Below are positions 13,453-15,208 of a stretch of 15,568 nucleotides of DNA, piece by piece. The notes under the pieces were generated by a model that searched no databases, had not been told where the DNA came from, and saw only the letters and a list, made by a program, of their open reading frames with translations. Source of the stretch: a virus. Location of the stretch: UHGV virus genome UHGV-0473420; one strand, given 5' to 3'. Within the stretch, counting starts at the first letter, position 1; every line of letters begins with the position of its first letter. Both the position numbers and the translations under genes were made by a program.

Positions 13453-14114
13453 CTACTCTAACGACAGCATACTTACAGCAATTGGTATTTTTTGCAGGCG
13501 AGGCTACTTGTCATCCTGACACAAACTATTTATTGGAATTTGAGAGGTTAGCGTCACCCGGTATCGTTCTGGAACTGGCCCAACAGGTACTGGCCTTGAG
13601 ACAAAAAGAGCAACATGAAAGTAATACGTGTAGATTGAATTTTGAGCAGTGGCTGGAACAGCAACGCGGAAAAATCGATGTGGACTGTGGTTGTGTGTCC
13701 ACTGAAACATTCATGCACTGGCTGCGGGTAGCTTACGAGGCTGGCAACTATCCGGATATTCCGGATAGTTCGGTGTCAGCGCCAGGAAAGGGCGTCACCG
13801 GTGGACGTATCCGCATTAAGCCGCATGTTTATCGCGAACTGGTTAACCGTCTCCACGATACAGCGGTCAAGTGTGCTGGCACCCAGCAATTACGAGAAAG
13901 AATTAGCCGTGTTTTGGGCGACGTTATTACGCCAGATCATCATAAACAAGCCGAGAAAAGTGGCTTGGAAAGGTGTCACCTTGAGGCGGCATTAAACATT
14001 AAGCCGGGGCATACGCTTGGCATTATTGATGCACTATTGGTTCATAAGATGGCCAGGGCTTTATTGCCGCTGGTGGCTGAAAAGCATGAGGCGGACCATG
14101 CCAACGAAAGCTGA
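13449..14114 (+). CDS. hypothetical protein (possible divergent Ead/Ea22-like N-terminus)
   Basis: ORF track 13434..14114; ATG 13449 gives ATGA overlap. LASPGIVLELAQQVLALRQKEQ loosely resembles the ASPATVLALLDE segment of Ea22-like proteins. Weak assignment. Confidence 0.5.
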   Translation: MTTLTTAYLQQLVFFAGEATCHPDTNYLLEFERLASPGIVLELAQQVLALRQKEQHESNTCRLNFEQWLEQQRGKIDVDCGCVSTETFMHWLRVAYEAGNYPDIPDSSVSAPGKGVTGGRIRIKPHVYRELVNRLHDTAVKCAGTQQLRERISRVLGDVITPDHHKQAEKSGLERCHLEAALNIKPGHTLGIIDALLVHKMARALLPLVAEKHEADHANES

Positions 14115-14382
14115 GTTACAGGCGCGCATAGAGATTCTTGAAAAAGAGAATGCGAGTCTAAAAGGAATGCTGGCGCGGGCGGAAAGGGAATTATCAGGCA
14201 AATTATTGCCAGAAGAGCTGCCACCAGCAGATATACCTGATCGAGTGTCCTGGTGGATGAAGTATTTCCGTGCTCCGTGGGAGGCGTTTTGGTGCTACGA
14301 CCATCGCAGATGGTGTGATGAGCTTGATAGCAGTTTCCCCTATTTTGCGGAAGGGAACTCTTGCCCTGAATGTAGGAGTTAA
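14086..14382 (+). CDS. coiled-coil / zinc-ribbon small protein, paralog 1
   Basis: ORF track 14017..14382; likely ATG 14086 or 14098. Leucine-zipper-like N-terminus (AELQARIEILEKENASLKGMLARAERE) and C-terminal WCYDHRRWCDELDSSFPYFAEGNSCPECRS. Confidence 0.5.
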   Translation: MRRTMPTKAELQARIEILEKENASLKGMLARAERELSGKLLPEELPPADIPDRVSWWMKYFRAPWEAFWCYDHRRWCDELDSSFPYFAEGNSCPECRS

Positions 14383-14687
14383 TGATGACCGGCGAGCTTT
14401 ATTTTAAAATGGCACGGGAGCGGCGTGTGCATCTGGATCGGATATTTCATCTCCAGAAGAGAGTAGAAGAACTGGAACGTCGTCTGAACTGTTATCCTGT
14501 TGATATGGTGTCTGCAATACCGCCGATTCCAATAGAAATGCAGATCCGCCTATGGATGGAAGAATATGGAATGCCGTGGGAGATATTTTTCTGCTTCGAC
14601 CATAAACAGTGGGTAGATGAGCTGGATAATAGTTTCCCATATTTCACAGAGAACACATGCCCAGTATGCAGGAAGAACGGAATATGA
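14382..14687 (+). CDS. coiled-coil / zinc-ribbon small protein, paralog 2
   Basis: Start ATG 14382 or 14385 (AGGAG SD at 14374-14378). C-terminal FCFDHKQWVDELDNSFPYFTENTCPVCRK is paralogous to the upstream gene at protein and DNA level. Confidence 0.55.
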   Translation: MMTGELYFKMARERRVHLDRIFHLQKRVEELERRLNCYPVDMVSAIPPIPIEMQIRLWMEEYGMPWEIFFCFDHKQWVDELDNSFPYFTENTCPVCRKNGI

Positions 14688-15208
14688 CAAAATTTGGAAA
14701 GCTGGAAGCTCATTTGCTAACTCGTAACTACCGCCATGATATACACCCATATAGACAGTGGATCGATGAAAGCGAAGGAGTAGTTACATTCCCTCTATAC
14801 AGGTTTGATGGGATGTTGGCTGGGTATCAGACATATAGACCAGGTGCTCCTAAGCAGCATAGCAATCCGAAGATGGCCCGGTATTTCACGCGATCACACG
14901 ACAGACAGTTACTTTGGGGAACCTATCTTCCTTTAAAAGATGGCCCAATATGGATAACTGAGTCTATTTTTAAGAGCGCAGCTGTACACAATGCGGGCGG
15001 CAATTCGTGGGCGCTGTTAGGTTCGACTTTCTCCGCAGGATTACGCCGTCAACTTGCGATGCTGCCGTATGACTTTCGTGTAATAGGTGACAATGATGCG
15101 GCTGGTGAATTACTTGTGAAGTCTTTCGGAAAAGGTTTTGTGGCCCCGGATCTTGACGAGCTACAACCACATGAAGTGTCTCATTTGATTTTTAGCCATA
15201 GCCAATAA
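14684..15208 (+). CDS. small TOPRIM-domain protein (primase- or nuclease-like)
   Basis: ORF track 14657..15208; likely ATG 14684 in ATGA overlap. Conserved-glutamate segment PIWITESIFKSAAVH and about 45 residues later RVIGDNDAAGE (DxD) fit the TOPRIM signature as recalled. Confidence 0.55.
   Translation: MTKFGKLEAHLLTRNYRHDIHPYRQWIDESEGVVTFPLYRFDGMLAGYQTYRPGAPKQHSNPKMARYFTRSHDRQLLWGTYLPLKDGPIWITESIFKSAAVHNAGGNSWALLGSTFSAGLRRQLAMLPYDFRVIGDNDAAGELLVKSFGKGFVAPDLDELQPHEVSHLIFSHSQ

Follow-up and report, generated by a model that had tools for sequence, protein, structure and literature searches.

The protein encoded by the last of three adjoining plus-strand genes near the end of a 15,568-nucleotide stretch of the UHGV virus genome UHGV-0473420 (this whole stretch is referred to below as the window) corresponds to a complete RNA-polymerase domain of a DnaG/gp4-type primase, with its N-terminal subdomain as well as its TOPRIM fold but no further domain. 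It is called here the TOPRIM protein, and the two small genes preceding it, which encode putative zinc-binding proteins, are designated ZR1 and ZR2. The best explanation of the three genes taken jointly, which we hold with slightly more confidence than doubt, is that the TOPRIM protein is an accessory, dispensable primase-like enzyme and that ZR1 and ZR2 are mosaic cargo. The open reading frames (ORFs) are located as follows:

14098..14382, plus strand: ZR1, an ORF of 94 aa, phrog_3797, with a RefSeq coding sequence (CDS) of the same length on pO111_2
14382..14687, plus strand: ZR2, an ORF of 101 aa, phrog_3797, a paralog of ZR1
14684..15208, plus strand: the TOPRIM protein, an ORF of 174 aa, phrog_849

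All three CDSs are annotated likewise by RefSeq on near-identical plasmids, pO111_2 among them. A preliminary description of this DNA placed the trio at 14086-15208; the three adjoining plus-strand ORFs were confirmed, but the left boundary was refined. Position 14086 is an in-frame ATG further upstream, and the ATG at 14098, preceded by GAGG 6 nt away, is the better-supported start of ZR1. The stop codon of ZR1 overlaps the start of ZR2 by 1 nt (TAATG), the stop codon of ZR2 overlaps the start of the TOPRIM gene by 4 nt (ATGA), and a purine-rich Shine–Dalgarno-like stretch is located before each of the three starts.

Single-sequence searches of Pfam, NCBIfam, PADLOC, and PDB with the TOPRIM, ZR1, and ZR2 proteins gave nothing useful, and the informative results came from PHROGs and family profiles. 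In the PHROG search, the TOPRIM protein matched phrog_849 (“DNA primase”, E 6.6e-54) and phrog_47 (T7 gp4-like, E 4e-11). Comparison of 93 homologs indicated that E93 (ITESIF) is invariant and that D136/D138 (GDNDAAG) and D156 are nearly invariant; the motifs noted earlier, the E of WITESIF and the DxD of GDNDAAGE, are real. The N-subdomain residues R14, Q49, Y51, K57, Y67, and T69 are also conserved in the family. When the profile of the 93 homologs was compared with PDB sequences, the DnaG catalytic core from Escherichia coli was found (E 1.8e-6), and all seven matches were DnaG-type primases. The DnaG alignment spans profile positions 21 to 144 and includes the FPI hairpin, the PK..N.P motif, EGxxD, and DxD.

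The structural comparison gave a similar picture. The AlphaFold model of the TOPRIM protein has a pLDDT of 95 and a pTM of 0.90, and its best 36 Foldseek matches in PDB consist entirely of domains from primases, namely T7 gp4, the DnaG proteins of five bacteria, T4 gp61, and Twinkle. These alignments, with a probability of 1.0 to primase TOPRIM domains and DnaG, occupy about 170 columns, i.e., the entire protein, and RNase M5 appears lower in the list with about 100 columns only. The family hidden Markov model pairs Y67 with F130 of gp4, E93 with E157, and D136/D138 with D207/D209; in gp4, F130 is a residue lining the active site (PMC9198812). The TOPRIM protein is devoid of cysteine and thus has no zinc site of its own, and the absence of a zinc-binding domain from a protein of about 174 aa, already remarked in the preliminary description, was confirmed. 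No zinc-finger Pfam family matched the 174-aa protein, and a Cys-rich N-terminus was not found in its longer Acinetobacter homologs. In the model, a single helix (162-173) ends the protein right behind the TOPRIM fold, and neither a helicase nor a helicase-binding domain is predicted. Because the PHROG, profile, and structure evidence covers the full length of the protein, the initial TOPRIM assignment can be sharpened to a stand-alone primase RNA-polymerase domain. Retention of the E/DxD/D metal ligands and of active-site residues in the N-subdomain points to an active enzyme rather than a decoy, and the protein is probably a Mg2+-dependent nucleotidyl-transferase.

The TOPRIM protein belongs to a family of stand-alone proteins of about 170 aa that resemble T5.076. 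The TOPRIM profile search revealed 104 clusters, nearly all of 163-187 aa, some of which carry Pfam Toprim_2 or Toprim_4. A tblastn search with the TOPRIM protein found 490 phage records, 456 of them covering at least 80% of the query and most of them from virulent phages. T5.076 of T5-like phages (172 aa, 43% identity) is flanked by tRNA genes, and ORF31 of the Kagunavirus RP180 (171 aa, 49% identity) overlaps the stop of a gene for an SNF2-type helicase in the replication module. Other homologs were found in Erwinia and Klebsiella jumbo phages, Vibrio phages, and Acinetobacter phage-plasmids. A T5-like phage also encodes a DnaG-like primase of 296 aa that includes a CHC2 zinc finger and is located between the replicative helicase and the polymerase, and RP180 encodes a separate 753-aa helicase-primase. 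Since both own a conventional primase, the small TOPRIM protein is an accessory second primase-like gene in them. A functional study was not found in the literature on T5.076, on primase-like genes in tRNA regions, or on TOPRIM genes in phage-plasmids.

In several genera of jumbo phages, the gene of the TOPRIM homolog is split across two overlapping frames, both halves being well conserved. Two examples are:

2495-2996 of locus L008: Klebsiella phage FBKp24
2408-3017 of locus L013: Erwinia phage Special G

Split homologs are also present in loci L026, L027, L039, L049, L070, L076, L079, L081, L082, L085, L093, L095, and L096. In FBKp24, the second (+1) frame opens shortly before the catalytic “LTESVFK”. 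A programmed frameshift could account for the split frames, and so could a gene that is split by nature or has repeatedly become a pseudogene.

The preliminary description suggested a split primase. In such an enzyme, ZR1 and/or ZR2 would give the TOPRIM core a zinc-binding template-recognition module in trans, and the coiled coils would dimerise ZR1 with ZR2. The absence of a zinc-binding domain and of any cysteine in the TOPRIM protein agrees with this idea, as do the translational coupling of the three genes in the window and the finding that gp4 lacking its zinc finger is primase-dead (PMC9198812), so that a partner would make sense. The distribution of the genes speaks otherwise. With the ZR profile, a ZR homolog was found within 6 kb of a TOPRIM homolog in none of 80 viral loci. 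The weak matches to this profile (E 0.07-0.11), including the one beside the Kagunavirus TOPRIM gene (E 0.07), concern the coiled coil only. Pairing of the zinc-finger-less TOPRIM proteins with any small ORF carrying a CxxC/H...CxC motif was considered as well, and such ORFs are not enriched close to TOPRIM homologs (0.039 per kb, versus 0.041 per kb farther off). The closest relatives outside the P1 group, P0004 and P0009 (64% and 57% identity), have unrelated neighbours and no ZR gene. A common downstream gene of 115-119 aa, which overlaps the TOPRIM stop, can be noted in these two closest relatives. It has the pattern “...EISFRLRL.TGRTVT..M.PY.FAL..TGMSDV...”, is absent from the window, and lies at:

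5531-5890 of locus L100
5512-5859 of locus L102

Among plasmids, the full-length TOPRIM gene was detected in 78 records, and about 95 further records of P1-like plasmids contain only the 3' third of the gene, unannotated. This remnant corresponds to aa 109-174 with about 88% identity and lies directly upstream of the lxr-side genes, as in the following example:

about 4817-5014 of locus L001 (MH422554, 86199-86396): TOPRIM remnant

The recurrence of the 3' remnant, by deletion or replacement, indicates that the TOPRIM gene is dispensable. ZR2 at ≥99% identity was found in only 14 plasmid records and, among the matches listed, the TOPRIM gene is also there, a point in favour of a split primase. 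A search of 5,426 complete E. coli genomes gave some part of the 1.1-kb region in 258 and all three genes in only 23, so the trio, which the preliminary description wished to see checked as a conserved unit, is rarely found whole. The partial matches break off at gene boundaries, namely at query position 296 between ZR1 and ZR2 and at 598 between ZR2 and the TOPRIM gene, and in D6 the query is matched through ZR1 only. The following arrangements were observed:

ZR1, ZR2, TOPRIM gene: this window
ZR1, two unrelated small ORFs, TOPRIM gene, with no ZR2: p28Eco12
gene for an Ea22-like protein of 271 or 284 aa followed by the TOPRIM gene, without ZR: plasmids of about 110 kb
ZR1 followed by hot, without a TOPRIM gene at that locus: RCS47
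ZR1 and the TOPRIM remnant: P1-like plasmids

Thus, the TOPRIM gene occurs without any ZR gene, it occurs with ZR1 in the absence of ZR2, and ZR genes occur without it, as in many P1-like plasmids. The trio therefore fails the co-occurrence test that the preliminary description had set for its own idea. Most likely, the adjacency of ZR1, ZR2, and the TOPRIM gene results from mosaic recombination at gene boundaries in a hotspot. Such independent shuffling in related elements means that the trio is probably not one split primase and, as the adjacency reflects mosaic cargo, neither a split primase nor a nuclease system is supported by it.

The properties of ZR1 and ZR2 themselves point in the same direction. 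Judging from their sequences, they are true paralogs with a coiled-coil helix and a putative zinc-binding domain: the C-terminal 54 residues are 52% identical (BLASTP E = 4e-22), and both proteins match phrog_3797 over the full length (E 9.3e-58 for ZR1 and 1.6e-36 for ZR2). In ZR1, the coiled-coil helix is N-terminal and the putative ligands C65-x2-H68...C88-x2-C91 are in the C-terminal domain; those of ZR2 are C71-x2-H74 and C93-x2-C96. In 102 members of the family, near-invariant positions are P65, W66, C71, W77, E80, L81, F85, P86, C93, and C96; either His or Cys stands at the second ligand position, and the domain follows the pattern PWE.F.C..[HC]..W..ELD..FPY....C.(1,2)C. The AlphaFold model of ZR2 (pLDDT 86.9) comprises one long N-terminal helix (2-36) and a small C-terminal domain. 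In this one model, the second CxxC is placed at a helix N-terminus, which suggests a treble-clef-like arrangement, unlike the two-hairpin zinc ribbon of primases. Of the preliminary view of ZR1 and ZR2, the paralogy, the coiled coil, and the putative zinc-binding C-terminus hold.

The ZR family had no match among Pfam families, PDB sequences, or PDB structures. The primase zinc-binding families PF08273 (Zn_Ribbon_Prim) and PF01807 (zf-CHC2) are absent among the Pfam hits of ZR1 and ZR2 at E ≤ 1, and the list of 25 Pfam families obtained with the 102 members contains neither of them. The possibility that the ZR motif is the T7 gp4 zinc ribbon in swapped order was also examined and rejected; isolated native and circularly permuted domains had no match to either family at E ≤ 10, whereas T7 gp4, used as a positive control, matched PF08273 at 2.2e-12.

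The family includes 114 clusters according to a word-indexed search and 67 according to an exhaustive scan of 1.84 billion representatives, and its members come exclusively from (pro)phages of enterobacteria and Vibrio. The ZR gene of P22-like phages is located in the nin region, between ninF and ninG or behind the replication genes, and a TOPRIM gene was not found in the stretch of these regions that was examined. Forms of 50-90 aa containing the zinc domain alone were also found. Among the 1.84 billion representatives, the only hits long enough for ZR and a TOPRIM core of about 170 aa were P0219 and a 621-aa match to the coiled coil only. The longer ZR hits that were fetched contained no TOPRIM fusion, and the sole clear fusion is that with an Ea-like protein in P0219 (285 aa), in which the 226-aa Ea-like protein is joined in frame to the zinc domain of ZR1 with loss of the ZR1 coiled coil. 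This fusion indicates module shuffling within the window region 13434-14382. Given the independent assortment of the three genes and the lack of a match to primase zinc fingers, we consider the split primase quite improbable. ZR1 and ZR2 are instead members of a separate small coiled-coil and zinc-finger family of temperate-phage accessory regions.

The label “antitoxin PHD” is attached to some ZR members in NCBI/UniRef (P0138, P0159, P0165, P0189, P0191, P0199, P0203, and P0204). The Phd/YefM family is not among the Pfam hits listed for the scanned members, and the label looks like a propagated misannotation, which perhaps arose from the proximity of phd-doc in P1-like plasmids.

The window matches P1, P7, RCS47, SJ46, and D6 and represents the variable accessory (“ea-like”) region of a P1-like phage-plasmid, between the pap and lxr/humD genes. 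In P1 itself, the slot is filled by upfM-upfO and hot (a homolog of the theta subunit), beside lxr and humD, and the TOPRIM gene of P1-like elements is found in the slot adjoining hot and humD. The nearest features around the trio and the operator of the gene string are:

13434..14114, plus strand: upstream 226-aa mosaic protein with phrog_21459/phrog_60 modules
15221..15247: 11-bp terminator-like stem-loop in the interval from the TOPRIM stop to the convergent lxr/Upf93.6-like gene
15269-15544, minus strand: convergent lxr/Upf93.6-like gene (ORF and lxr/Upf93.6 annotations)
6074..6090, plus strand: operator Op88/OpmgT of the C1 repressor, differing from the operator consensus by one mismatch, together with the PpmgT promoters, upstream of the gene string

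The 226-aa protein is context and not a member of a system with the trio. Its gene overlaps ZR1 by 17 nt, it matches phrog_21459 (E 7e-83) and phrog_60 (E 1.5e-14), and it resembles the neighbouring genes of the ea region. The module “YRELVNRLHDTA..GTQQLRE” is common to this protein and to another protein, of 271 aa, whose gene stands before the TOPRIM gene in the plasmids of about 110 kb. The surrounding genes are mostly Ead/Ea22, DUF551, or phrog_60 mosaics. A run of Ead/Ea22-like, DUF551, and phrog_60-type proteins occupies 7983-12283, and the genes at 10083-10478, 10688-11137, and 11345-12283 match the same PHROG families (phrog_60, phrog_5117, and phrog_660) from the first residue, which suggests N-terminal modules common to different C-termini.

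Positions 6063-6132 of the window are identical to the annotated P1 operator/promoter region containing the C1 operator Op88/OpmgT and the PpmgT promoters. Four matches to the C1-operator consensus of P1 were found in the window, where 0.08 are expected by chance; four sites were obtained in none of 200 shuffles. They are located at:

309-325, minus strand
3933-3949, plus strand
3982-3998, minus strand
6074-6090, plus strand

The start of the pmgR/pmgS-like genes lies between the two sites of the pair around 3933-3998. From 6269 to 15208, every gene is on the plus strand with gaps of no more than 207 nt; the TOPRIM gene is the last in this string of roughly 9 kb, and the stem-loop at 15221-15247 is probably the end of the plus-strand transcription unit. 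From their position behind a C1-repressed promoter, ZR1, ZR2, and the TOPRIM gene are probably expressed once C1 repression is lifted and are probably silent in the lysogen.

This setting bears on the nuclease system also raised in the initial description. Under such a proposal, the trio would be a defence or abortive-infection nuclease of the prophage, in which the TOPRIM protein is the effector and the zinc-finger proteins serve as sensors or regulators. Known defence systems do include small TOPRIM nucleases, and defence cargo is carried by P1-like plasmids. Such general knowledge is what speaks for the proposal, and the present results lend it no support. None of the three proteins has a PADLOC match at E ≤ 1, the fold of the TOPRIM protein is that of a primase along its whole length, and the neighbourhood in the window contains no gene for a partner ATPase of the kind to be expected by comparison with OLD/Gabija GajA, PARIS AriB, and retron TOPRIM effectors. 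The position of the genes as the last ones in an operon under a C1-repressed promoter, with probable silence in the lysogen, and the occurrence of TOPRIM homologs mostly in virulent phages also argue against it, and a defence role seems very improbable.

The neighbourhoods of the TOPRIM family in other phages suggest another possibility, namely that its members act on RNA, in tRNA/RNA processing, repair, or extension, possibly in phage counter-defence islands. The T5-like homolog is located between tRNA genes, and tRNA genes were found no more than 2 kb from the TOPRIM homolog, often on both sides, in 18 of the 80 viral loci; with clustering at 60% identity, this amounts to about 5 of 19 clusters. 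In some loci, tRNAs lie within 50 nt on either side of the homolog. An example embedded among tRNA genes is:

2989-3507 of locus L007: T5-like phage DT571/2

Other tRNA-associated loci are L025-L029, L037, L043-L047, L063, L064, L069, and L071. The adjoining genes encode a CCA-adding enzyme (Vibrio phage F89, L011, 631-2465), RtcB (Erwinia phage Special G, L013, 2811-4267), NAMPT (ten loci), and NUDIX proteins. No explanation that was tested accounts for these neighbourhoods with tRNA arrays, the CCA-adding enzyme, RtcB, and NAMPT. A role in RNA metabolism would also agree with the presence of a replicative primase in the phages concerned and with the existence of TOPRIM RNases such as RNase M5, which is among the weaker structural matches. 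However, the likeness to primases includes their specific N-terminal subdomain and not the TOPRIM fold alone, and the top hits are all primases. In large phages, accessory genes of all kinds gather in the tRNA regions, which are general hotspots, and the association with tRNA genes is missing in most clusters, in Kagunavirus, and in P1-like elements; the Rfam and tRNA scans of the window were empty.

With regard to the role of the TOPRIM protein in the window, most likely it would work on single-stranded DNA in the lytic phase as a dispensable accessory enzyme of primase-like activity, acting alongside the main replicative primase and not replacing it. We infer this from the fold, the linkage to a helicase gene in the replication module of Kagunavirus, and the hot/humD neighbourhood. 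Several facts weigh against this explanation. The natural 56-kDa form of T7 gp4, which lacks the zinc finger, does not synthesise primers (PMC9198812), so a zinc-finger-less core may not prime alone. The EGxxD motif of the enterobacterial subfamily has K (ESIFK) in place of D as its second acidic residue. In many large virulent phages, the TOPRIM gene is found in tRNA arrays or beside genes of tRNA repair and NAD salvage rather than beside those of replication. Finally, the tight translational coupling of ZR1, ZR2, and the TOPRIM gene is compatible with their co-function in this lineage. Because of the gp4 precedent, the D-to-K change, and the recurrence in tRNA arrays, the RNA-directed role is the main rival of an accessory primase-like activity, although we consider it unlikely. 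It is also conceivable, but distinctly unlikely, that the T5.076-like family is a new enzyme class, in which a zinc-finger-less primase core performs a job other than replicative priming, for example, RNA/tRNA nucleotidyl transfer or cleavage in counter-defence islands, or priming with an unconventional specificity factor acting in trans (ZR1/ZR2 in the P1 lineage).

An active stand-alone primase core would reveal how large a part of the DnaG-type enzyme catalysis requires, and it would explain the second, zinc-finger-less copy in phages that own a primase or use that of the host. The question reaches hundreds of genomes of T5-like phages, Kagunavirus, jumbo phages, and phage-plasmids, where the gene simply bears the name “DNA primase”. 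Three warnings for annotation follow: adjacency in P1-like mosaic regions should not be taken as evidence that genes form a functional system, ZR proteins should not be named “antitoxin PHD”, and “DNA primase” on proteins of about 170 aa should not be read as the replicative primase. The remaining interest is moderate and concerns a widespread family of zinc-finger-less primase cores and a small orphan zinc-finger family.

When comparing the TOPRIM protein with T7 gp4, a similar size can be noted for the RNA-polymerase domain of the latter (residues ~64-255), which also consists of a basic N-terminal subdomain and TOPRIM; the E, the DxD, and the position of the active-site aromatic residue align. 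The protein of the window, however, has no N-terminal Cys4 zinc ribbon, linker, or helicase domain, its identity to gp4 is about 18-20%, and the second acidic residue of EGxxD is lysine in it. Compared with DnaG, it has neither zf-CHC2 nor the DnaB-binding domain, the helical subdomain at the C-terminus of the core is missing too, and the arginines of the “FRDR” stretch of DnaG align with acidic residues of the TOPRIM family. Pfam Toprim_2/3/4 were argued by Iyer et al. (PMC5512222) to be primase-type domains of mobile elements. According to the same authors (PMC5512222), the TOPRIM primases of their polyvalent-protein analysis are found on conjugative elements and never in phages, whereas the family of the window protein is phage-borne.

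The phrog_3797 proteins found elsewhere, in P22-like nin regions and P1-like plasmids, share with ZR1 and ZR2 the coiled coil and the C-x2-[HC]...C-x(1,2)-C motif, but they are single-copy and unlinked to a TOPRIM gene. The closest known counterparts of the TOPRIM protein are the phrog_849, T5.076, and Kagunavirus ORF31 proteins of 171-173 aa, which show 42-49% identity over 93-94% of the length. Genes of the T5.076/ORF31 type belong to virulent phages and are located in tRNA regions or in a replication module, whereas the gene of the window belongs to a temperate phage-plasmid and stands beside ZR genes.

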